Positions 1,504 to 22,870 of a stretch of 32,000 nt of DNA are shown piece by piece. Every line of letters begins with the position of its first letter. Position 1 is the first letter of the stretch. This stretch comes from Caldivirga maquilingensis IC-167 (GTDB taxonomy: Archaea > Thermoproteota > Thermoprotei > Thermoproteales > Thermocladiaceae): contig NC_009954.1 of NCBI RefSeq assembly GCF_000018305.1, forward strand, positions 210,001 through 242,000. The letters are read 5' to 3'. The translations under genes were made by a program, and so were the position numbers. Under the pieces are notes generated by a model, which was given only the letters and a program-made list of their open reading frames with translations, was not told the DNA's origin and did not search any database.

Positions 1504-2610
1504 ATGAAATTCATATTCGGTAGGGAGATTCTTGACCCATCGGAATTCTATGATAGGGAGGAGGAACTTAAGGTACTTATTAATTCATTTAAGGTTAGGC
1601 AACCAATTGCAGTTATAGGTTATAGGAGAATGGGGAAGTCGTCATTAATTAATGTTGCTCTTAAATTAATGGATAATGAAGATACAGTAACCGTTAAGGT
1701 GTCTTTAGAGGGGGTTAGAAGCATTAGGCAGTTTCTCGACCTTTACGTTAGTAGTATTCTTACGGAGACCGTTAGGAAATCGATTAGACTTAAATTGAAG
1801 GTAGACTTAATTAACATTAGAGATGCATTACATGCATTACTCGGCGCTGTGAGGGAGGCTGGGGTTAGGTTTAATGGACTGGACTTCTACGTTAGGCTTT
1901 ACACTGATGTGATTGATTATAAGGTTAACATGATTAAGGCATTGGATGAATTCCTTCAAATGCCCCAGAAGATTGCTGAGGAGTTGGGTAAGAACATGGT
2001 GATTGCGCTTGATGAATTCCAGCAGGTTAGGTTCCTTAAGCAACCGTACCCTGATGTATTAAGGGTCATGAGGAGGATTTGGCAATCCCACAGCATGGTT
2101 GAGTATGTGATCGCTGGGTCTGAGGTGGGTATTATGAGGGAGTTACTGAGTAGGAGTGATCAACCCTTCTTCGCCTTCTTTAGGGTTATTGAATTAAAGC
2201 CCTTTAATAAGGACACCAGTATATCATTCCTAAGGGAGGGGCTTATGGAGAATGGGGTGTATTGTGTAGGTGAAGTCTTAGAGAAGGCTTATGAGTTAAC
2301 GGGTGGTTTCCCAGCTTGGCTTAACCTGGCTGGTTTAAGAATGGTTGAGGGAGGCTGCGATAAGTGGTTTATACTAAATGACCCAACAGTCAAACTCATT
2401 ATAGAATCCGAGTTAAGTAGCCTTAACCATAATCAACTTAGGCTCCTTAAGGCATTAGCCATGGGTATTAGGTTGAATAAGGCAAACGTTATGAAGCCTA
2501 ACAGGGTTTTAAATGAATTAATCGCAAAGGGGCTTGTTGAGAAGACTGGGTGGGGTAGGTATAGGATTGTTGACCCATTGTTGGCGAATTACTTGAAGAT
2601 TAATGGTTAA
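1504..2610 (+). CDS. AAA+ ATPase of the archaeal Arch_ATPase type (PF01637-like), probable C-terminal wHTH
   Basis: The N-terminal FYDREEEL is followed by Walker A IAVIGYRRMGKSSL (about 1618-1641) and Walker B MVIALDEFQQ (D170-E171, 2011-2016). The C-terminus LNELIAKGLVEKTGWGRYRIVDPLL looks like a winged helix. The layout is typical of this paralogue-rich archaeal family. Confidence 0.75.
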   Translation: MKFIFGREILDPSEFYDREEELKVLINSFKVRQPIAVIGYRRMGKSSLINVALKLMDNEDTVTVKVSLEGVRSIRQFLDLYVSSILTETVRKSIRLKLKVDLINIRDALHALLGAVREAGVRFNGLDFYVRLYTDVIDYKVNMIKALDEFLQMPQKIAEELGKNMVIALDEFQQVRFLKQPYPDVLRVMRRIWQSHSMVEYVIAGSEVGIMRELLSRSDQPFFAFFRVIELKPFNKDTSISFLREGLMENGVYCVGEVLEKAYELTGGFPAWLNLAGLRMVEGGCDKWFILNDPTVKLIIESELSSLNHNQLRLLKALAMGIRLNKANVMKPNRVLNELIAKGLVEKTGWGRYRIVDPLLANYLKING

Positions 2611-2680: not shown

Positions 2681-5600
2681 ATGGGGAATCCTTATGAAGC
2701 ATTAGGCTTCGTGGATAGGCCGCTTAACCCAAGTGGGCTCCCACCGGTGGTTAGGCGTTACGTCACCATGGGGCTTGAGAAGGAGATTAGCGAGATTATG
2801 AAGGCTGTGGAGGTTTTTCTAAGGGGTAGTGATAACATGCTGTTGGTTGTGGTGGGTCCGTATGGTTTCGGTAAGTCGGATCTACTTGATGATGTTGAGG
2901 AGAGGCTTAAGGGTCTTAACGTGGATGTGGTTAGGACCGCCCTCAGCCTAAGCATGAACATTAAGGATTACTTAATTAACAGATTCATGAGTAGGGATCC
3001 CAGTAAACCATTGATCCTAATGTTTGATGAGGCTGATGAGTTAACTAGGGCAGTCTCAATGTCAGGTGGAGTGAGTGGTGAGGTTAAGAACTCCATAATG
3101 CAGGTTACTGGATTAATTAGGGCTATTTTAGAACCAAGGAACTACGCCTCACTACTTAACCTTAAGCCAAGTGACTTAAGTAGAGTAATGATAATAGCAG
3201 CCTTCACCCCCCAATTATATTACAGTATACTGAAGAATAATGTACCGGACGTGTTCGATATTGCCAGGGGAAGGGTCTTCAAGGAGATTACCATTGATGA
3301 TAGGGTACCCTACTGGCTTTACGAGGCTATCATTGAGAATAGGCTCCTATCATACTCAAAGCCGGAGAGACTTAAGGCTATTAATGATGGTAAACTTAAC
3401 CCCCTTCACCCCTTTAATAGGGAATCATTATCATTAATATACCTAATAGCCAGGAGAATGGAGAATGGGCAGGCTTCACCCAGGAATCTGATTAAACTAA
3501 CCTCCAAGTTACTTGAAATGATTACTGAGGATGATGGTCAATTAACCGTAAACCTCATGATACGCTTCCTAACCTCAGAACTAGGCAAGTACATTAACCT
3601 CAGTCTACTTAATGAGTTAAAGACCTATGGTGATGATTTAATGCACGTAGCCTTATCCGGCATACCTGTTAAGGCTAATCCCAGTGTTGAGTTAACTGGG
3701 CTTGTTGAGAAGGTTAAGGTTATTGAGATTAACCCAGAGAATGCCAGTGAATTACATGTTATTAATAACTTGAGGATGATTTACGGTAAACCACCAATAG
3801 CTGCTGATGACTTGAGAAACCTATCCATAGAGTACGGCTCATACTACACAGTACCAATGGATAAGGGGGTTAAGTTAGTGGTTATACTTCCAGCTGAGGC
3901 TGATGTTAAGGGTTTCATAAGTCATGAAGCCTACGTACTTAAGAAGAGTATTCACGATAAGCTACTTGGCTTAACTAATCCAGAGACCAGTAGTCTTGAT
4001 GAGTTAAGTAGCTTCATAAGGCAAGTAGCCACAGCTAAGCCCATTGACGTAGCCAGTAGGATAATAAGCATGATCACTAAGAGTGAGCCTATTAAAACCC
4101 AGGATGGTTTAAGAATAGTCATCGCCGACAATGCCCTAGACGCTAGACTAGCCTACGTAGTGCTCACAAGCCCTGAGGGTGCATTAGGTGTTGCAGCTAA
4201 CTGTGGTGTTAGGGTTAATGGGCAGGTTAAGCATGTTGATGGTTTAATAGGGCTCATTGTTAATGACCAGTTACTGACAAGTCAACTTCAAGGTAACCTA
4301 AACGTGAAGTGGTGTGGAGTTTATGATGCATCTCAAAGAATCCTGTTAATTAACTACGGCTCAGATAACGTGGAGGAATTGAGGGGAATCCTAATAGGTC
4401 TCTACGTATTATCCAAGTTCAGTAAGATACCCAGTGAGTACGCCAGTCAGGTTCAAAGCGCCACTAGGTTCATTGAGAGGATCAGTGCCTTCAGGGATTC
4501 ATTGAGGAATCAACTCCTTCAATACACACTGGGCCTACCTAGGAGGAGGGAGGGTAAGAGGGATGCCATTAGGAGTGTTGTTAAGAGTTGGGTTGATGGT
4601 ACTATTGATCAATTAACACCCTCAGCCTTTAAGTGCGGGGATAAGCCATGCATATCTAGGGTTGAAGCAACCTTGGTGAATTACCTAAGTAGCCTTAAGA
4701 GGCCGATTGATGAGAAGGAGCTTGAGTACGTTATAAGGGGGCTTTTCCCCATTCAATTATGGAGGGACTTCAAGGAACACGATTTAATAGACTTAATGAG
4801 GCTAAGGGGACTGCTTTTTGAACGTAATGGGAAGTACGTAGTGACCATTAATGGTGGATTCAACGAGGCCGTTAACGACGCATGCCTCAGGGTGAGGGAA
4901 TTAGCTAAACTGCTTAATGGCAGTGTCCCAATAAGTATTGGTAATATTAACCTCACTTTACAGACAGGCTTCAGTGCACTTCAAGGAGAGGTTAAGGAAC
5001 TTGAGGAGGAGTGTAGGTTACTCACAACGGTAATAAGTAACCCCACTGAAGATGAGTTGAAGAAACTGGCTAAAATTAACTTAAGCCTAATTACTCTTCA
5101 AGATAAGGTGAATGAGGTTAAGGAGAATGAGGGGAAGTTAATTAATGAGATGAAGAACACCATAAGTAACCTGAACACCCTAATCAACTCCCTGAGTAAC
5201 CCTGAGGTTAATGTTGATGATGCGATTAAGGATGTTGTGAGAAGTAAGGTTAAGGAACTCCAGGAAACAGTAATGAGAGCTGTGGGTAACCTAAATGGCT
5301 TAAGCATTGATAAGGCATATGAGGCTTTAAAGTCCTTAAACGAAAACGTATCTAAGGAGATTAATAGACTTAGGAGGGAGCTGGAGCTTTCAGCATCAAT
5401 ACTGCATTACGCTCATGAACACGCGGTAATAGCACTTATATTATCTAAGGCGTCTCAATTAATTGGTAATGGCGATGAGATACCGCCTGAGGATAATATT
5501 ACTGATTCAATAATTGAATTATTGAGTAAGGATGCGTTGGATGATTTAGAGACCGTGTTAAGTGAGTATGAGAGTAGGGTTAAGGAGGCTAGGGGGAGGT

Positions 5601-5974
5601 TAATAGACGTTATTAGCAGGGTTAAGGCTAAGGCTGCTGAGTTATATAATTCAGTTAACTGGCTTAGGCATAAGGGGTTGGTTAACCAGGACTTGAAAAT
5701 GCCGAACTTGGATTCAGTTAACTTGAGTGAACTTAAGGCAAGCATTGATGAGTTAGTTAACGTTAACGGTATGGTGACCAGTAGGCTTAATGAATTAGCC
5801 AGTAAGCTTAACGTACCTTTAAGTGTACTGAGGTACATTGCCTCAATGGGCCCTAACGTCGGCCTTGATGAAGTAATCATGGCTAGGGAACTAGGCATGG
5901 AGTCCAGGGAGGTTATTAATTACCTTGAGACTTTATGGAGGGCTAAACTGGTGGAGAAGCGTTATGTCTCATGA
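2681..5974 (+). CDS. Large (1097 aa) P-loop AAA+ (ORC/Cdc6-like) ATPase with C-terminal coiled coil and terminal wHTH; function unknown
   Basis: Walker A VVVGPYGFGKSDLL (2855-2878), Walker B PLILMFDEADEL (3011-3040), sensor-like MIIAAFT, and a lid-like segment SPRNLIKLTSKLLE. Residues ~760-1010 (nt ~4958-5708) are heptad-rich and E/K/L/N-rich (LQGEVKELEEECRLL..., KEINRLRRELELS..., EYESRVKEARGRLIDVISRVKAKAAELY). The last ~50 aa, MARELGMESREVINYLETLWRAKLVEKRYV, look like a wHTH. Confidence 0.7.
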   Translation: MGNPYEALGFVDRPLNPSGLPPVVRRYVTMGLEKEISEIMKAVEVFLRGSDNMLLVVVGPYGFGKSDLLDDVEERLKGLNVDVVRTALSLSMNIKDYLINRFMSRDPSKPLILMFDEADELTRAVSMSGGVSGEVKNSIMQVTGLIRAILEPRNYASLLNLKPSDLSRVMIIAAFTPQLYYSILKNNVPDVFDIARGRVFKEITIDDRVPYWLYEAIIENRLLSYSKPERLKAINDGKLNPLHPFNRESLSLIYLIARRMENGQASPRNLIKLTSKLLEMITEDDGQLTVNLMIRFLTSELGKYINLSLLNELKTYGDDLMHVALSGIPVKANPSVELTGLVEKVKVIEINPENASELHVINNLRMIYGKPPIAADDLRNLSIEYGSYYTVPMDKGVKLVVILPAEADVKGFISHEAYVLKKSIHDKLLGLTNPETSSLDELSSFIRQVATAKPIDVASRIISMITKSEPIKTQDGLRIVIADNALDARLAYVVLTSPEGALGVAANCGVRVNGQVKHVDGLIGLIVNDQLLTSQLQGNLNVKWCGVYDASQRILLINYGSDNVEELRGILIGLYVLSKFSKIPSEYASQVQSATRFIERISAFRDSLRNQLLQYTLGLPRRREGKRDAIRSVVKSWVDGTIDQLTPSAFKCGDKPCISRVEATLVNYLSSLKRPIDEKELEYVIRGLFPIQLWRDFKEHDLIDLMRLRGLLFERNGKYVVTINGGFNEAVNDACLRVRELAKLLNGSVPISIGNINLTLQTGFSALQGEVKELEEECRLLTTVISNPTEDELKKLAKINLSLITLQDKVNEVKENEGKLINEMKNTISNLNTLINSLSNPEVNVDDAIKDVVRSKVKELQETVMRAVGNLNGLSIDKAYEALKSLNENVSKEINRLRRELELSASILHYAHEHAVIALILSKASQLIGNGDEIPPEDNITDSIIELLSKDALDDLETVLSEYESRVKEARGRLIDVISRVKAKAAELYNSVNWLRHKGLVNQDLKMPNLDSVNLSELKASIDELVNVNGMVTSRLNELASKLNVPLSVLRYIASMGPNVGLDEVIMARELGMESREVINYLETLWRAKLVEKRYVS

Positions 5975-6551
5975 ATCTCCATTAATAGTGGCTGTGGGTA
6001 ATGATCCTGGAAGCAGGTTATGTAGGCTTATTAAATGTGTAGACAACTATAGTGGTTACGTTGATGTAGCAATATGCCTTAAACAATGCCGAGACATTAA
6101 GGCACCCATTATTATTAATGTTACTAACTGCAATTGGGGTGGAGGGGTGGTTTACGGTAATGTAACCCTCAAGTCAATTAAATGCTGCAGTACAGACTGC
6201 GTTAAGATTATTGATAATAATATTGTTATTACTGGTTACGTGCCTAAAGTGTACATGGGGCCGATGGCTGAGGTATTAATTAAGGATGTTACAGCCCTCT
6301 GGAGGAGTACGCTTACTGATGATGCTGTTAATAGGATTAGTAGAAGGATACTTGCTGAGAGGAGTAGCCTTGGCTTATCTAAGACATTAATGGGCTTAGT
6401 TAGGATGCTTAAGAGTGGTGATGCCTCAGGCTTGGATGAGGAGGTGCTAATGATTCTTGAAACCCTAGGTATTGTTAATTCAGGAATACTAATGGATAAG
6501 GATAAGTTAAGAAGCCTAATAGAGGAGGTGAGTAGGATTGTATACCCTTGA
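5964..6551 (+). CDS. Cys-rich small protein (195 aa from ATG 5964; the ORF track offers an upstream ATG at 5925), function unknown
   Basis: The ATG at 5964 is preceded by GGTGGAG (5950-5956) and overlaps the upstream stop (5972-5974) by 11 nt. The first ~95 residues contain nine Cys (LCRLIKC, AICLKQC, NCNWGGG, KCCSTDC). The C-terminal half is helical (LDEEVLMILETLGIV). I recognise no family. Confidence 0.55.
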   Translation: MSHESPLIVAVGNDPGSRLCRLIKCVDNYSGYVDVAICLKQCRDIKAPIIINVTNCNWGGGVVYGNVTLKSIKCCSTDCVKIIDNNIVITGYVPKVYMGPMAEVLIKDVTALWRSTLTDDAVNRISRRILAERSSLGLSKTLMGLVRMLKSGDASGLDEEVLMILETLGIVNSGILMDKDKLRSLIEEVSRIVYP

Positions 6552-7434
6552 ATCATTAATAGGAGGCATATATAAGCTAAGTGAGGTTGAGTTAGCTCAA
6601 ATAAGCACTGAGCTTGATGGCTTAAACATTAGGGACATTATAATTGAGATTAAGGATAATTCAAGTAATGATTACAACACTGCAGCAGTGGATTCAGGTT
6701 TCATACCGGTAAAGTACCTTGGAGTGATTATTGGTTTAATAAACGTGGCAACTGTTGTGCTTCCAAGTAGTGTGAGAAGTAGATTCATTGTGAGGATGGT
6801 TGATAACTTGGAGTCCCTTGAGGAGGCTGCTAAGCTTGAGGAGTTTAACTCAGCAGCTGACTTACTGAAGGACCATGAGTTAGTTTTAATGGATGGACCA
6901 TTAGTGGTCAGTGATGAGGAGTCAAGTAAGTTAAATGCATTAATTAATAGCGCATTAAGCACCGGGCATTACGTATTATCCTTCACCAAGGAGGTTCGCG
7001 TTAACCGCGTCTCCAGTAGGTTAATGGGTGTTAGGAATCAGATTAATGAAGTGGCATTATTCTTCACCTTATTTGAAAGATTCAGGGAGAAGGAGTCGGG
7101 GTCTGTTTTAATCACGGTGCCGGTTAATGTGAGAAGTGGGGTGGTGGGATTCTACATGCAGGTTAATGGTGGTAGCCCCCCGGTTTACGTTGAGGCCAGT
7201 GAGAATGTGCTTAAGAATCCAAGCGTACTGGGGGCTGTGTCATTAATGATGAGTAGGGAGAATTACCCAATACCGCTTTACGTTGCTGATAAGTTATCTA
7301 AGGTTAGTGATGAGGTTAAGAGGTGGTTCATTATGGCATTACTTAGAATGGGTGAGAAAGGTGAGGTGGATCCACTACTGTATAGGTATATTAGGGATAT
7401 GCTTGGTTACGCCAGGGGTAGAAGCCTTTATTAG
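6538..7434 (+). CDS. NurA-family nuclease (divergent), TTG start
   Basis: The set of motifs matches NurA: NTAAVDSGF (D52, nt 6691), HELVLMDGPL (D119, nt 6892), YVLSFTKEV, VVGFYMQV, and ENYPIPLYVADKLSKV (D251). No in-frame ATG lies upstream of motif I. The TTG at 6538 sits 6 nt downstream of GGAGGTGA (6524-6531) and overlaps the upstream gene by 14 nt. Confidence 0.72.
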   Translation: MYTLESLIGGIYKLSEVELAQISTELDGLNIRDIIIEIKDNSSNDYNTAAVDSGFIPVKYLGVIIGLINVATVVLPSSVRSRFIVRMVDNLESLEEAAKLEEFNSAADLLKDHELVLMDGPLVVSDEESSKLNALINSALSTGHYVLSFTKEVRVNRVSSRLMGVRNQINEVALFFTLFERFREKESGSVLITVPVNVRSGVVGFYMQVNGGSPPVYVEASENVLKNPSVLGAVSLMMSRENYPIPLYVADKLSKVSDEVKRWFIMALLRMGEKGEVDPLLYRYIRDMLGYARGRSLY

Positions 7435-7853
7435 TTTTGGGGTGAATCCTCGTTAATCGACTTAAGTATGCTTAAGACGTCTTGGGTTCGCTGAATGTAG
7501 ACGTAATTATACTTACCCCTCTTCTCAACGTTAACTAACCCTAATTCACTTAACCTCTTAATTATCCTGAAGAGCGTGGACTTAGGTATGTTTAGTTCCT
7601 TACCTATAATGGATTGAATAACCGGCTTACCCCTACTCATAAGGTACTTAAGCACCTTAACCTCATCAGTGTTGAGCCTTGGCCTACTATCATTAATGGG
7701 TAATGAATCCAATTCGATACTATCATTAATCACCCTCAGTATTCCTTTAGTTAACCTAGCCTTAACATCATACATCATGTAACCCAGCACCATTATTAGG
7801 AAGGCCTCCATCATTACTATTACCATTATTACGTTACCTAAAGGTGGCTGCAC
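7431..7853 (-). CDS. Membrane-anchored winged-helix transcription regulator (MarR/TrmB-like wHTH)
   Basis: The N-terminal hydrophobic helix VIMVIVMMEAFLIMVLGYMMY is followed by VKVLKYLMSRGKPVIQSIIGKELNIPKSTLFRIIKRLSELGLVNVEKRGKYNYVYI. The gene overlaps the upstream minus-strand gene by 16 nt (alternative start at 7826). Its stop overlaps the stop of the convergent NurA-like gene. Confidence 0.6.
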   Translation of the reverse strand: MQPPLGNVIMVIVMMEAFLIMVLGYMMYDVKARLTKGILRVINDSIELDSLPINDSRPRLNTDEVKVLKYLMSRGKPVIQSIIGKELNIPKSTLFRIIKRLSELGLVNVEKRGKYNYVYIQRTQDVLSILKSINEDSPQN

Positions 7854-8578
7854 TCATTAATCACCCTAGTCACTGAATTCTCAAGTTTATCGGTTAGTAT
7901 TGTTAATAAACCAAGGGTTCTTATTGACCCACTGGCCAGTATCATGTAGCCGTAATTCTCTATATTATTTAGGCCGAGTTCAGAAATACCCTTTACAATG
8001 CATTCACTATTCCTTATCTTACCAATTACACTAATACTCACGTTAGCCGAGCCGGCGGTTAATCCACTGCTTAGGTTTATTGATATTACTGAGGCCACGT
8101 CACCAATCCTAATGACCTTGTAGGCTTCATTATTATTACCACTAACTAACCAATCATTATTACTAAGCATTAGTGCAATTTCTATGTTTGAAATGGGGGT
8201 GTTAGTCATGTATGACATTTCCTCTATAAGTTCACTTAACGCATTCAATAGGATTTTTAAGTCATTAATACTCTTAATACCCTTAAGTGTAACTGATGGT
8301 ATTAACACAGCCATTTTAGAATCCTTAACGTAATCAGCGTAGAAGCCTAATGAACCAACCGCTGGGGCTATTATTGAGAACTCCTCCTCATTAACCGGGG
8401 TTATTGTTGCTATTTTAAACTCAATTAAACCTGTATTAACCATTCTATTGAATGATAATTCAATAAGCTTTCCATTAACCATTGAGTAAACCTTAGACTT
8501 CTCCACACCACCACTGAACTCCTCAACAATAACACTATCCATTACGAATTTTACCATGTATAAGGTGCTTATATGCAT
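7838..8578 (-). CDS. Hypothetical protein (246 aa), no recognisable domain
   Basis: This is a long ORF with coding-like composition, coupled to the downstream wHTH gene. The start is uncertain: M13 at 8542 has ATATAAG about 30 nt upstream. No motif recognised. Confidence 0.55.
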   Translation of the reverse strand: MHISTLYMVKFVMDSVIVEEFSGGVEKSKVYSMVNGKLIELSFNRMVNTGLIEFKIATITPVNEEEFSIIAPAVGSLGFYADYVKDSKMAVLIPSVTLKGIKSINDLKILLNALSELIEEMSYMTNTPISNIEIALMLSNNDWLVSGNNNEAYKVIRIGDVASVISINLSSGLTAGSANVSISVIGKIRNSECIVKGISELGLNNIENYGYMILASGSIRTLGLLTILTDKLENSVTRVINECSHL

Positions 8579-21298: not shown

Positions 21299-22468
21299 GT
21301 GTTAAAAACTAGGTTATACTACATAATTATAATGCTTATTCGTGAGATTAATCGTGGTGGTACTAGGGGGTCTGAATACGCATATGTTATGTTAAATAAT
21401 GAGTTAGTTCATGTTTCGGAGGCAGGTAAGAGAATTAGATGTGATGGTGATTTATGCGTATATGAGGTTTTAGCCAATGTTAATTATGTTTACTTCTTCT
21501 CCTTCAGTAGAAGTGGCTATAGTTCCGTTGTAAGATGTTTGCCTGGTGATTATCCCGACATTATGATAGACAACAGCATATGTGAGGTTAAGGATGTTGA
21601 GGAGGTGCTCAATACCTGGCTTAGGGGTATTAAGTTTAGGATTAGAGATCCAGAGTTGAACAAACTACTCAATGAGTTGAATTCGGACTTCGCGATCATG
21701 TCTAGTGAGGTAAAGAGTTACTGGGGATCCGTGGGTGGTGTGTTCAAGGCTGTAGGTCACGCTGCCCGGTTTAATGAGTTTCTTAAGGATCCGAGGATTT
21801 ATTACTTCACAGGGATGAGCATACCCAATGATAATGGTAGGGTTAGAAGTATTAAGGTCCTAATGTCCATAATGTATGAGAACTGGGTAGCTATGAAGAC
21901 CGCTAAGGTGCTGGGTGTTAGAGGTCTCATTAGGAGGAGTTGGGAAGCAAACACAACTAGCTCTATTAGCATGTGGTTTGAGCAGGGTAGTGATAACAGT
22001 TTCGCCATACTGGATACTACGTATGGTCCCATTACCATGTGGATTGAGTTCCAGTGGGATCCAGCTATTCACGTATTTCTTGACGCTGAGATAATTAAAA
22101 AGAATGGTAAACTGAAGTTCATTAGGAAGCCAGGAAGGAAGGCTGTTAGGCCAGATATAGTACTAGTTAAGGGAGCATTCGATAACGTGAATGCCTTAAT
22201 GCAAGCTAATAAAGATATTGACGTATTAATAGAGTGTAAGACCTTGCCTTACAATGAATGGGCTTCTGATGCGGATGAACAGGTAATGCAATACCTAAGT
22301 AACTTCAGACCCAAGAATATGGCATTAATCACAAGGTACGGCATACCAATCAACATTAAGAATAAGTTGACGAAATATGGAATAAGGGTTATAGATAACG
22401 TAAAACCAAGTAGCATGATAGAGAATGAATTAAGTAATTTCATTCAAAACGCCTTTAGCAGTCTATAA
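21299..22468 (+). CDS. Hypothetical protein with a C-terminal PD-(D/E)xK nuclease-fold signature
   Basis: MYENWVAMK (helix with E), VRPDIVLV (D286, nt 22154), DVLIECKT (E312-x-K314), then EQVMQY (QxxxY, 22280-22294). The order and spacing fit RecB/McrC/restriction-endonuclease-like domains. The start is uncertain (GTG at 21299 or ATG at 21332). Confidence 0.55.
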   Translation: MLKTRLYYIIIMLIREINRGGTRGSEYAYVMLNNELVHVSEAGKRIRCDGDLCVYEVLANVNYVYFFSFSRSGYSSVVRCLPGDYPDIMIDNSICEVKDVEEVLNTWLRGIKFRIRDPELNKLLNELNSDFAIMSSEVKSYWGSVGGVFKAVGHAARFNEFLKDPRIYYFTGMSIPNDNGRVRSIKVLMSIMYENWVAMKTAKVLGVRGLIRRSWEANTTSSISMWFEQGSDNSFAILDTTYGPITMWIEFQWDPAIHVFLDAEIIKKNGKLKFIRKPGRKAVRPDIVLVKGAFDNVNALMQANKDIDVLIECKTLPYNEWASDADEQVMQYLSNFRPKNMALITRYGIPINIKNKLTKYGIRVIDNVKPSSMIENELSNFIQNAFSSL

Positions 22469-22507: not shown

Positions 22508-22870
22508 CTTTCTAATCCCTTTTGGGATTTTCTTTCTCTCTCTTTCACACTACGTACATGGATACAGATATATCTTTCTAATCCCTTTTGGGATTTTCTA
22601 GTGACACGAAGTTCACTGTATTCGACATTAAGGTAGACTATACTTTCTAATCCCTTTTGGGATTTTCTTGTTTGGTTGAGAATCTGCTCAATAGCGGAGT
22701 AAGCCGATCTTTCTAATCCCTTTTGGGATTTTCATGAAAAATTCATGTTAAATTAATTAGAAAAATCATGATTTTCACTTTCTAATCCCTTTTGGGATTT
22801 TCTTCACAGTCGGTAACTGCCACACCTGGTTACCGTTAAACCCCACTTTCTAATCCCTTTTGGGATTTTC
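22508..22870 (-). CRISPR. CRISPR array, 6 repeats / 5 spacers
   Basis: Six identical copies of CTTTCTAATCCCTTTTGGGATTTTC (25 nt) start at 22508, 22574, 22643, 22709, 22778 and 22846. The spacers are 41, 44, 41, 44 and 43 nt and all differ. The repeat core is the palindrome AATCCC-TTTT-GGGATT. The reverse complement GAAAATCCCAAAAGGGATTAGAAAG ends like the crenarchaeal ...ATTGAAAG repeats, so I orient it on the minus strand. Confidence 0.95.

Follow-up and report, generated by a model that had tools for sequence, protein, structure and literature searches.

A conserved three-gene module of Thermoproteales that joins a large ORC/Cdc6-like AAA+ ATPase, a small partner protein and a minimal NurA-family nuclease

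What kind of protein is the large ATPase encoded at positions 2681 to 5974 of this DNA, and with which partners would it work? In the window, by which we mean the whole stretch of 32,000 nucleotides analysed, the gene leads an operon. The initial annotation saw no partners beside it, which is correct for BREX partners, but the next two genes overlap and the second encodes a NurA-family nuclease. The three genes are as follows:

2681..5974, plus strand: large ATPase gene, the lead gene of the operon; ORF from ATG to TGA, 1097 aa
5964..6551, plus strand: small partner gene, 195 aa from the ATG at 5964, which overlaps the ATPase stop by 11 nt
6538..7434, plus strand: minimal NurA-family nuclease gene (Pfam NurA), 298 aa, TTG start

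The TTG start of the NurA gene overlaps the stop of the small partner by 14 nt, and GGAGGTGA lies 7 nt upstream of this TTG. The three products are currently annotated as hypothetical or left unnamed.

The 1097-residue ATPase lies outside every catalogued family (Pfam, NCBIfam, PADLOC, PDB). No family exceeded its cut-off in scans against Pfam, NCBIfam, PADLOC and PHROGs, and PDB sequence-profile searches with the full and the N-terminal ATPase alignments returned only generic AAA+ P-loop or coiled-coil noise. The protein was divided on the basis of an AlphaFold2 (AF2) model with a mean pLDDT of 85.9, of a separate model of residues 330-762 (pLDDT 86.9, pTM 0.79), and of the homologue alignment:

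2681..3295, plus strand: residues 1-205, conserved N-terminal motif (GFxDxPFxPSGV...VGxExEL) and AAA+ alpha/beta core; predicted five-strand core (AF2), Foldseek matches to ORC/Cdc6
2855..2878, plus strand: Walker A, residues 59-66, GPYGFGKS with K65; G62, G64 and K65 invariant
3014..3040, plus strand: Walker B, residues 112-120, LMFDEADEL with D116/E117; D116, E117 and D119 invariant
3272..3274, plus strand: R198, candidate trans-acting arginine, invariant including distant relatives, directly before strand 201-204 (AF2)
3296..3547, plus strand: residues 206-289, helical lid with candidate sensor-2 arginine R268 (SPR motif); predicted helices 211-283 (AF2)
3548..3703, plus strand: residues 290-341, variable winged-helix-like unit after the lid, tentatively assigned from short helices followed by strand 342-350
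3704..4540, plus strand: residues 342-620, fast-evolving alpha+beta region; its fourth strand is followed by two helices and then two long helices (AF2)
4541..4855, plus strand: residues 621-725, conserved internal winged helix domain, helix-helix-helix-hairpin topology in both models
4856..5815, plus strand: residues 726-1045, heptad-rich helical arm: an opening helix and a beta-hairpin, then seven helices of 10-53 residues (heptad score, AF2)
5816..5971, plus strand: residues 1046-1097, C-terminal wHTH, three predicted helices at 1047-1087 (AF2)

The claims that the ORF carries a Walker A lysine and a Walker B pair within its first ~120 residues, and that these belong to an ORC/Cdc6-like AAA+ module, were both borne out. 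The two Walker motifs were kept across 26 homologues (down to 26% identity) and in two very distant relatives, and P14, G19, G31 and N52 were likewise invariant in the homologue alignment and the distant relatives. When the model was compared with the PDB by Foldseek, the best matches of the N-terminus were Orc1, Orc4, Cdc6 and Sulfolobus solfataricus Orc1 (probability 1.0, TM on target 0.36-0.49, E 4e-5 to 3e-4). Among solved AAA+ structures, ORC/Cdc6 subunits are thus the closest fold to the predicted N-terminus. K65, D116/E117, R198 and R268 are invariant and stand in the model at the places expected of an ORC/Cdc6 AAA+ protein, which is consistent with the functions proposed for them; in the lid, P267 is invariant in the 26 homologues and R268 there and in the two distant relatives. 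The ExEL motif before Walker A, the lid arginine and the post-lid wHTH are shared with ORC/Cdc6 proteins and with the ATPase_2 family (PF01637), but the ATPase is three times larger and below all Pfam cut-offs. The helix-extension-helix (initiator-specific) insert after strand 2 is not evident either, a single 10-residue helix (94-103) lying between strands 82-87 and 111-116, while the extra AAA+ helices form an insertion between strands 3 and 4 of the model. STAND-type matches were sub-threshold and confined to relatives (AAA_16 in 15/26, nSTAND_NTPase5 in 3/26, NACHT and NLRC4_HD2 in P0049). Foldseek matches to dynein were rejected: with an rmsd of 40-55 A over ~1300 columns, they come from an AAA+ module combined with long helices. 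In BFVD, the full model matched nothing but generic AAA+ proteins.

The initial annotation recognised no motif in the ~640 residues that follow. No Pfam or NCBIfam model reached its cut-off between residues ~120 and 760, yet the AF2 model divides this stretch into the remainder of the AAA+ core, the lid, the winged-helix-like unit, the alpha+beta region and a wHTH. The counterpart of residues 290-341 in P0051 and P0069 matches TrmB-type wHTH models and aligns there. The middle ~430 residues match no solved structure; Foldseek against the PDB gave nothing better than E=0.12 for the middle region. The internal wHTH is built in the model from helices 660-672, 678-688 and 699-709 and a hairpin at 712-721, and its P690, W694, D701 and G710 are invariant in the homologue alignment.

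A coiled coil of ~250 aa had been proposed at nt ~4958-5708. The heptad signal is real and reaches to about nt 5818, but the model shows seven loop-joined helices (17, 48, 23, 53, 10, 45 and 29 residues) rather than a single rod. The heptad-register score exceeded the 99th percentile of shuffles at residues 759-788, 789-856, 872-918, 947-994 and 1012-1046, and elsewhere only at 575-620. Within the ATPase, the arm and the alpha+beta region evolve fastest. Conservation is lowest in the arm, which carries lineage-specific deletions: Pyrobaculum homologues lack residues 842-870, 919-938 and 1010-1028, which shortens it by ~70 residues. Because the helices are loop-joined and the deletions are tied to lineages, the arm is probably a folded-back helical arm or bundle and not one rod of ~250 aa. 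That it is appended to the ATPase, and not inserted as in SMC/Rad50, agrees with the AF2 model. The winged helix foreseen at the end of the protein was found as well: the C-terminal end of several homologues matches TrmB, MarR, HTH_24 and ArsR models, and this wHTH is among the best-conserved parts of the ATPase.

Of the two partners, the small protein had no match in Pfam, the PDB, PHROG or PADLOC and belongs to no family known there; E132, R133, S139 and Y194 are invariant in its homologue alignment. The third protein matched Pfam NurA with E=3.2e-9 and 37.1 bits (cut-off 21) over profile positions 2-254 of 254, while a PDB sequence-profile search with the NurA alignment gave no informative match. 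Its active-site residues D52, E102 and D119 were invariant in all 37 NurA partners and D/H251 was kept in 36 of them. These positions correspond to D51, E105, D126 and H411 of Pyrococcus furiosus NurA, which were proven essential (PMC3300031). Judged by the retained motifs, the ATPase and NurA both look active. Three NurA-HerA families have been catalogued in Pyrobaculum (PMC3396285); the NurA of this module is none of them, and represents a fourth, previously uncatalogued NurA paralogue.

The ATPase had 46 homologues, and every named one is from Thermoproteales. A search of 1.84 billion proteins returned just 30 cluster representatives at E<1e-30, and a second search with P0069 as query added one further protein. 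Identity to the window ATPase was 91-67% in Caldivirga, 47-37% in Thermocladium and allies, ~33% in Vulcanisaeta and ~30% in Pyrobaculum, and each genome with a match had one locus. Since identity tracks taxonomy and each genome carries a single locus, the pattern is chromosomal and vertical. The neighbours of the module in the window are housekeeping genes (RNA polymerase A'/A'', H+-PPase, enolase, SBDS and eIF6). No relatives of the module were found in viral contigs, phage records or plasmids, so the test for a mobile-element origin was negative in these collections.

The ATPase, small partner and NurA genes were directly adjacent, in this order, in 37 of the 45 informative loci, defined as those with at least 1.5 kb of downstream sequence. 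The adjacent trio covers Caldivirga, Thermocladium, Vulcanisaeta, Pyrobaculum and Thermoproteus, that is, all five sampled Thermoproteales genera, together with a Guaymas Thermoprotei MAG. Among the exceptions, three loci of one subclade (L006, L021 and L030) have the ATPase with neither partner nearby, L047 has no NurA nearby, and L036 carries both partners 4 kb away; an apparent exception at L039 was an ORF-calling artefact. With the ATPase alone in that subclade and without NurA in L047, it can evidently persist uncoupled. Two deep relatives, P0069 and P0080 (1218-1225 aa), align with the ATPase over 1017 columns (hhalign 98.8%), and their operons have the order x, ATPase, y, NurA, HerA. 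As these relatives also stand beside NurA, the link between ATPase and NurA is older than Thermoproteales. HerA was present only in these deep-relative loci (L005 and L007), where HerA and a TGT-family gene lie downstream; no DUF87/HerA gene occurs in the window or was listed in the Thermoproteales loci with Pfam marks.

Other neighbours were less constant. A GNAT gene adjoins the operon in Thermoproteaceae, and GNAT, Metallophos and ThermoDBP were rejected as conserved partners because they are syntenic within Thermoproteaceae only. Immediately upstream, the window has a gene for a PF01637 ATPase (1504-2610), which was rejected as a fourth subunit because only the window and its closest relative have it next to the operon.

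These results indicated that the three genes form a vertically inherited, previously undescribed module, and a literature search for NurA with an AAA+, STAND or Cdc6-type partner returned no description of it. In the explanation we prefer, which we hold to be about evenly balanced, the large ATPase acts with the ~200-aa partner and the minimal NurA, as an ATP-gated scaffold that binds DNA and positions or licenses the nuclease. The ATPase would be an ORC/Cdc6-like switch or ring with a complete nucleotide site (K65, D116/E117, the trans-acting R198 and the lid R268), and might oligomerise on DNA in an ATP-dependent manner. The DNA would be held by the alpha+beta region together with two or three winged-helix domains, and the fast-evolving arm may serve as a spacer or oligomerisation element. 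NurA would be recruited or licensed by the ATPase, possibly by way of the small protein, the conserved wHTH at the C-terminus, or both, and its cutting would be limited to where and when the ATPase is engaged.

The ATPase would then stand where HerA, and conceptually Rad50, stands in HerA-NurA/Mre11-Rad50 end resection. In both the module and the HerA-NurA complex, a NurA with the same catalytic residues is encoded beside a large P-loop ATPase, and the deep relatives still keep HerA in the operon. However, the ATPase here is an ORC/Cdc6-like AAA+ protein and not a HerA/FtsK hexameric translocase, NurA has shrunk to 243-308 aa in most Thermoproteales partners (P. furiosus NurA has 451), the module has a small third subunit, and no mre11/rad50 is adjacent. 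We slightly favour a chromosomal role (DNA ends, damaged or stalled DNA) over anti-invader defence. Thermoproteales already own canonical NurA-HerA pairs, so a role of the module in repair would be an additional one.

Anti-invader defence is a realistic possibility, to which we give less than an even chance. A BrxC-like scaffold of Orc/Cdc6 type would sense foreign DNA and direct NurA to it. In this view the HerA-containing deep form would count as a "HerA/FtsK capture system", of which the Thermoproteales version would be a reduced, domesticated derivative. The published layout of the defence protein BrxC consists of an ORC/Cdc6 AAA+ module, a wHTH, an alpha+beta domain of ~200 aa without a fold match, a second wHTH and a coiled coil of 250-500 aa (PMC12839542). 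The initial annotation found the combination of parts unfamiliar; no catalogued family covers the protein, but the predicted order of its parts appears to have this precedent. Judged by the succession of secondary-structure elements in the two confident AF2 models, the part order of the ATPase would agree with that of BrxC/PglY, including an alpha+beta domain that lacks a fold match and the C-terminal coiled coil. It falls in the same size class (1100-1300 aa), with a helical bundle on the N-terminal AAA+ module in both, and differs by an extra wHTH after the arm. The comparison with BrxC/PglY- or DUF499-sized ATPases was therefore a good lead, although no BrxC membership was detectable. Weak matches to PF10923 (BrxC/BrxD) occurred in 8/26 relatives, all within profile positions 15-92 of 414, the P-loop region. 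With hhalign, the ATPase alignment gave 4% probability over 29 columns around Walker A against seven type-1 BrxC proteins (bacterial and haloarchaeal), and 3.6% against a single BrxC.

The gene content speaks on both sides of the defence explanation. An Orc/Cdc6-family ATPase together with HerA/FtsK, a nuclease and wHTH proteins is a published conflict-system theme, as in the capture and BRC systems (PMC10853773, PMC12839542), and the TGT gene beside HerA in L005 and L007 and the GNAT gene beside the Thermoproteaceae operon are further points of likeness. Upstream in L007 lie HNH and Schlafen/AlbA_2-RNase HII genes, and the rapid evolution of the alpha+beta region and the arm also fits defence. 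Against it, the archaeal family of the TGT-like neighbour is widespread and its adjacency may reflect synteny only, as may that of GNAT. Capture and BRC effectors are of REase or PglZ type while the nuclease here is NurA, a word that occurs in neither of the two papers, and the Thermoproteales module carries no HerA, STAND, PglZ or DUF4007. PADLOC gave no match for the small protein or NurA and only a sub-threshold coiled-coil match to LmuB for the ATPase. PglZ, PglX and BrxA/B/L are missing from the module, whose partner is NurA instead. Finally, the module is confined to one archaeal lineage, lineage-wide and single-copy rather than patchy, and it is flanked by core genes in the window.

A more specific and rather unlikely form of the chromosomal role is that of an ancient Thermoproteota machine, fixed in the chromosome, in which an ORC/Cdc6-type AAA+ ring with a BrxC-like body, and not HerA or Rad50, would load onto DNA and drive or license a stripped-down NurA.

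It is very improbable that the main task of the ATPase is to organise the chromosome or bridge DNA in the manner of SMC/Rad50, with an arm that tethers DNA segments and a nuclease in an accessory part. An ATPase that carries wHTH domains and a long helical region rich in heptads would suit such a role, and weak profile matches were seen to helical proteins of the SMC, MCP and apolipoprotein types; those to SMC, LmuB and TrlF were sub-threshold coiled-coil matches only. The likeness to Rad50/SMC, where an ATPase with a long helical arm and a nuclease act on DNA together, is one of analogy only, as the head is AAA+ and contiguous rather than of ABC type, no zinc hook or hinge was recognised, and the C-terminal arm has a longest helix of just 53 residues and is the part that varies most. 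The strict operon link is, moreover, to a nuclease with an intact active site.

Equally improbable is a genuine, highly diverged BrxC/PglY or DUF499 ATPase of a degenerate BREX-type system, for which the size, the predicted domain order and the PF10923 matches of the relatives speak: the window ATPase had no PF10923, PF19557 (DUF6079), NCBIfam BrxC or DUF499 match at E<=1, neither it nor its relatives matched DUF499 (PF04465), whose members end in a wHTH and RRM without a coiled coil while this protein ends in a helical arm and wHTH, PglZ and the PglX/BrxX methyltransferase were absent from the window and from every relative's locus whose called genes carried Pfam marks, and BrxC membership was rejected because the profile comparison with real plasmid-borne BrxC aligned the P-loop alone.

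To our knowledge, NurA has been described solely in partnership with the HerA translocase, for end resection in archaea and bacteria, and BrxC-type scaffolds solely in BREX-like defence systems. Here, an apparent BrxC body plan without a detectable BrxC sequence signal stands in an operon with an uncatalogued NurA across the five sampled genera. If the ATPase and NurA work together, the motors or regulators of NurA would include a new class, the BrxC architecture, which is poorly understood, could be studied in a simpler model of three components whose enzymatic read-out is clear, and a Thermoproteales-specific pathway of DNA metabolism or immunity would be added. If the ancient-machine reading holds, Thermoproteales would have a new pathway for DNA-end or damage processing or for genome surveillance, and the BrxC-type scaffold would be a general nuclease-delivery platform that predates BREX or is independent of it.

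Two minor observations complete the picture. Used as a query, the TGT-like neighbour placed the L005 locus vaguely, among TACK-type archaea. And according to PMC4041433, Thermoproteales have replaced their canonical SSB.

The initial annotation saw no partners for the 1097-aa AAA+ ATPase, but two genes overlap the ATPase gene and each other, and the second of them encodes a NurA nuclease. The genes concerned are as follows:

2681-5974 (+): ATPase gene
5964-6551 (+): small gene, ATG at 5964, 11 nt inside the ATPase gene; 195 residues
6538-7434 (+): NurA gene, TTG start at 6538, 14-nt overlap with the small gene, GGAGGTGA motif ahead

The small protein had no known family in Pfam, PADLOC, PDB, and PHROGs. 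Its C-terminal half was helical and conserved, with E132, R133, S139, and Y194 invariant. The NurA partner (298 residues) matched the Pfam NurA profile over its whole length at E=3.2e-9 and 37.1 bits, against a gathering score of 21. Among the 37 NurA partners that the fetched loci provided, the positions of D52, E102, and D119 were invariant, and position 251 was D or H in all except one (36/37). These four positions match D51, E105, D126, and H411 of P. furiosus NurA in order and spacing; there, D51, E105, and D126 bind Mn2+ or serve catalysis, and H411 binds a second metal (PMC3300031). PMC3396285 lists three NurA-HerA families in Pyrobaculum and Vulcanisaeta; the partner belongs to none of them, and no NurA is given there near Pogu_0218, the ATPase of P. 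oguniense.

HMMs of the three proteins were then run over all fetched loci with ATPase relatives, and those whose downstream sequence reached 1.5 kb or more were counted. Both partners lay directly downstream of the ATPase in 37 of 45 loci. Of the eight exceptions, L039 is an artefact of ORF calling. In L036 the partner pair was found 4 kb upstream on the opposite strand, and L047 had the small gene with no NurA nearby. L005 and L007 carried NurA, with a middle protein of no detectable relation to the small protein. Moreover, three loci of one subclade (L006, L021, and L030) had neither partner within 3.9-6 kb of downstream sequence, and their ATPases were full-length (1117-1125 aa).

The deep-branching relatives had larger operons, located as follows:

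L005: 4429-13610
L007: 5257-14288
L008: 5196-11605

The relative P0069 (1225 aa) aligned with the ATPase family profile over 1017 columns with an hhalign probability of 98.8%. It and P0080 come from unplaced TACK-type archaea, and their operons run in the order of a ~250-aa protein (hereafter x), the ATPase, a 240-306-aa protein, NurA (370-398 aa), HerA (DUF87 with a HAS barrel), and a TGT-family gene. The last two genes were carried by L005 and L007. In the Guaymas Thermoprotei operon, x and the ATPase are followed by a protein recognisably homologous to the small protein and then by NurA. The x proteins of L005, L007, and L008 were homologous, with a weak MCM8-WH match, and x was absent upstream of the ATPase in Thermoproteales proper. 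The sampled Thermoproteales operon lacks x and HerA, and its NurA has merely 243-308 aa. Since the operons of the deep relatives already combine the ATPase with NurA, the link between the two predates Thermoproteales. The operon is tightly coupled and conserved over deep divergence. In addition, a second NurA gene and a 486-aa gene lie nearby in L005, and HNH and Schlafen/AlbA_2-RNase HII genes lie upstream in L007.

The ATPase itself was largely as first described. Its reading frame was open from ATG to TGA over 1097 residues, and the Walker A (GPYGFGKS, K65) and Walker B (DEADE, D116/E117) motifs were found at the residues named. Both were invariant in an alignment of 26 homologues with identity down to 26%, and also when two very distant relatives joined the N-terminal alignment. 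P14 and G19, part of an N-terminal GFxDxPFxPSGV motif, were invariant as well, together with G31, N52, R123, R147, E151, R198, W212, and R268. Judged from the sequences, the catalytic motifs are intact in both the ATPase and the nuclease. Scans of the ATPase with Pfam, NCBIfam, and PADLOC gave no match above threshold; the generic P-loop models AAA, AAA_16, and ATPase_2 touched residues 30-150, all sub-threshold.

AlphaFold2 modelling, proposed in the initial annotation, was run on the 26-sequence alignment and gave a confident model (mean pLDDT 85.9, pTM 0.61) with the following parts:

1-205: AAA+ core with five strands
211-289: helical lid
290-341: short, variable WH-like unit; its equivalents in the relatives P0051 and P0069 match TrmB-type models and align here
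342-620: alpha+beta region, with two helices past the fourth strand and then two long helices
621-725: clear winged helix
727-745 and 748-761: opening helix and beta-hairpin, the start of the 726-1045 region
after the hairpin, up to 1045: arm helices of 17, 48, 23, 53, 10, 45, and 29 residues with loops between them
1046-1097: terminal wHTH

The ATPase starts with an ORC/Cdc6-like AAA+ fold, after which several winged-helix units follow. The best domain-level Foldseek matches in the PDB were ORC/Cdc6 subunits (yeast and human Orc1, Orc4, and Cdc6, and S. solfataricus Orc1), with a probability of 1.0 and a TM on target of 0.36-0.49; dynein matches were disregarded for their rmsd above 40 A. Two arginines agree with ORC/Cdc6-type ATPases by their positions in the model: R198, directly ahead of strand 5, would be the arginine finger, and R268, a lid residue, would be sensor-2. 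However, the helix-extension-helix insert that ORC/Cdc6 proteins have after strand 2 was not evident, and the model places extra helices between strands 3 and 4 instead. Residues 330-762, modelled separately, were also confident (pLDDT 86.9, pTM 0.79), and their best match in the PDB was no better than E=0.12.

The E/K/L/N-rich periodicity reported for the C-terminal part was reproduced, as five segments within 759-1046 exceeded the 99th percentile of shuffled sequences in heptad-register score, and outside this range only 575-620 did so. The reading of this region as a coiled coil of ~250 aa was kept in part. The region is heptad-rich, but the model splits it into seven helices separated by loops, so that a folded-back arm or bundle is predicted, and not one continuous rod of ~250 residues. 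The terminal winged helix was borne out, with the last 50 residues modelled as three helices and TrmB, MarR, HTH_24, or ArsR-type wHTH matches in several homologues. The AAA+ core, lid, internal wHTH, and C-terminal wHTH were the conserved modules; evolution is fast in the alpha+beta region and in the arm. The arm was the least conserved stretch, and 842-870, 919-938, and 1010-1028 were missing from the Pyrobaculum homologues.

The initial annotation had likened the protein in size to BrxC/PglY- or DUF499-type ATPases. In a comparative study from 2026 (PMC12839542), BrxC, the scaffold ATPase of BREX, consists of an ORC/Cdc6-clade AAA+ with helical bundle, a wHTH, a ~200-aa alpha+beta domain that matches no fold, one to three further wHTH, and, at the C-terminus, a coiled coil of 250-500 residues; DUF499 ATPases have this core in common with BrxC and end in wHTH and RRM. 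By the secondary-structure order of the two AlphaFold2 models, the parts of the ATPase would fit the order of BrxC, which gives the size comparison substance. Family membership, however, failed all the sequence-level and context tests run. PF10923, DUF6079, and DUF499 did not match the window ATPase, and PF10923 matched 8 of the 26 relatives only within profile positions 15-92 of 414. When the family was compared by hhalign with seven aligned, bona fide type-1 BrxC proteins, the probability was 4% over 29 columns around Walker A. Furthermore, the loci with Pfam marks on their called genes contained no PglZ, methyltransferase, BrxA, BrxB, or BrxL.

In 5.8 billion proteins, a word-indexed search returned 46 ATPase homologues annotated as hypothetical, and all the named ones belong to Caldivirga, Vulcanisaeta, Pyrobaculum, or Thermoproteaceae. 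Among 1.84 billion cluster representatives, an exhaustive HMMER profile search gave just 30 matches at E<1e-30; three distant N-terminal matches (P0069, P0080, and P0091) came next, and the remainder was noise from coiled coils. With one genome scanned per species, 39 loci were found, from Caldivirga, Thermocladium, Vulcanisaeta, Pyrobaculum, Thermoproteus, MAGs of Thermoproteales/Thermoproteota, and the Guaymas 'Thermoprotei archaeon'. Each genome matched had a single ATPase locus, and identity dropped along taxonomy. The viral contigs of IMG/VR, the phage records of GenBank, and the plasmids of PLSDB gave no relatives. The window is a region of the Caldivirga chromosome with 91% identity to Caldivirga sp. 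UBA161, and it also encodes RNA polymerase A'/A'', H+-pyrophosphatase, enolase, SBDS, and eIF6. In the JCM drafts of Vulcanisaeta and Thermocladium (L025, L034, L041, L046, and L048) the ATPase gene appeared to be in 3-7 ORF pieces, and NurA was also split in some of them. Because the genes were intact in other Vulcanisaeta-type loci (L001 and L016-L019), this suggests probable indel errors in these drafts rather than pseudogenes.

The ATPase is best read as the signature subunit of an ATPase-adaptor-NurA module that is undescribed and spans the lineage, and the finding reaches past a single odd protein. NurA-ATPase machines and BrxC-type scaffolds are already known, and the module is a variant of these rather than categorically new. 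We propose that the ATPase would assemble on DNA in an ATP-dependent manner, hold it through its wHTH and alpha+beta domains, and position or license the minimal NurA, directly or via the small protein, taking the place of HerA in the canonical complexes. Vertical inheritance at the level of the order, a single copy, a place in the core genome, and the absence of relatives from mobile elements speak for a role in chromosomal DNA processing, which we consider about evenly balanced. A role in defence is possible though somewhat doubtful; it is favoured by the BrxC-like body plan, the fast evolution of the putative recognition parts of the ATPase, the nuclease-rich neighbourhoods around some deep relatives, and a published conflict-system theme. 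In these anti-invader 'capture systems', published by the group behind the BrxC study, Orc/Cdc6 ATPases occur with HerA/FtsK, nucleases, and wHTH proteins, and a BREX-related one includes HerA, GNAT, and TGT (PMC10853773, PMC12839542). The operons of L005 and L007 resemble this theme, their nuclease being NurA, a word that does not occur in these two papers.

In 13-16 loci of Pyrobaculum and Thermoproteus (L003, L004, L026-L033, L038, L039, and L042-L045), the upstream side of the ATPase gene carries divergent genes for a GNAT acetyltransferase, a protein of 161-171 aa, and a Metallophos phosphoesterase of 255-260 aa. In 13 loci, NurA is followed within 0.2-2 kb by the gene for the ssDNA-binding protein ThermoDBP (PF18361). 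The GNAT and ThermoDBP adjacency in Thermoproteaceae is family-level synteny only, and this neighbourhood may reflect inherited gene order or a functional association. Directly upstream of the ATPase gene, 1504-2610 (+) encodes a 368-aa 'archaeal ATPase' (PF01637, ORC/Cdc6-like, C-terminal wHTH). It adjoins the operon only in the window and its closest relative, L011, and is therefore not part of the conserved module.

Further features of the window are as follows:

1478-1503: palindromic ACCGGTACCGGT-type sequence, immediately before the ATG of the PF01637 gene
2611-2680: 70-nt intergenic stretch before the ATPase gene, with an A/T-rich TTAATTTAA element ~40 nt upstream of the ATG that could be a candidate TATA box giving a short leader
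7432-7434: NurA stop codon, spanned by a T-rich run, TTTATTAGTTTT
7431-7853 (-): 140-aa protein with hydrophobic N-terminus and Csa3/Lrs14/TrmB-like wHTH, convergent with the operon, its gene end overlapping the NurA stop by 4 nt
7838-8578 (-): next gene, a 246-aa ORF of no known family
21299-22468: 389-aa ORF with no Pfam match, just upstream of the CRISPR mini-array
22508-22870: CRISPR mini-array of six 25-nt repeats, CTTTCTAATCCCTTTTGGGATTTTC (Rfam CRISPR-DR17), whose starts are 66-69 nt apart

Among the scanned window ORFs, none was recognised as a cas gene, and the array lies ~15 kb from the operon. The 140-aa gene and the 246-aa ORF show synteny across the Caldivirga loci and also in L014, a Thermoproteaceae MAG.
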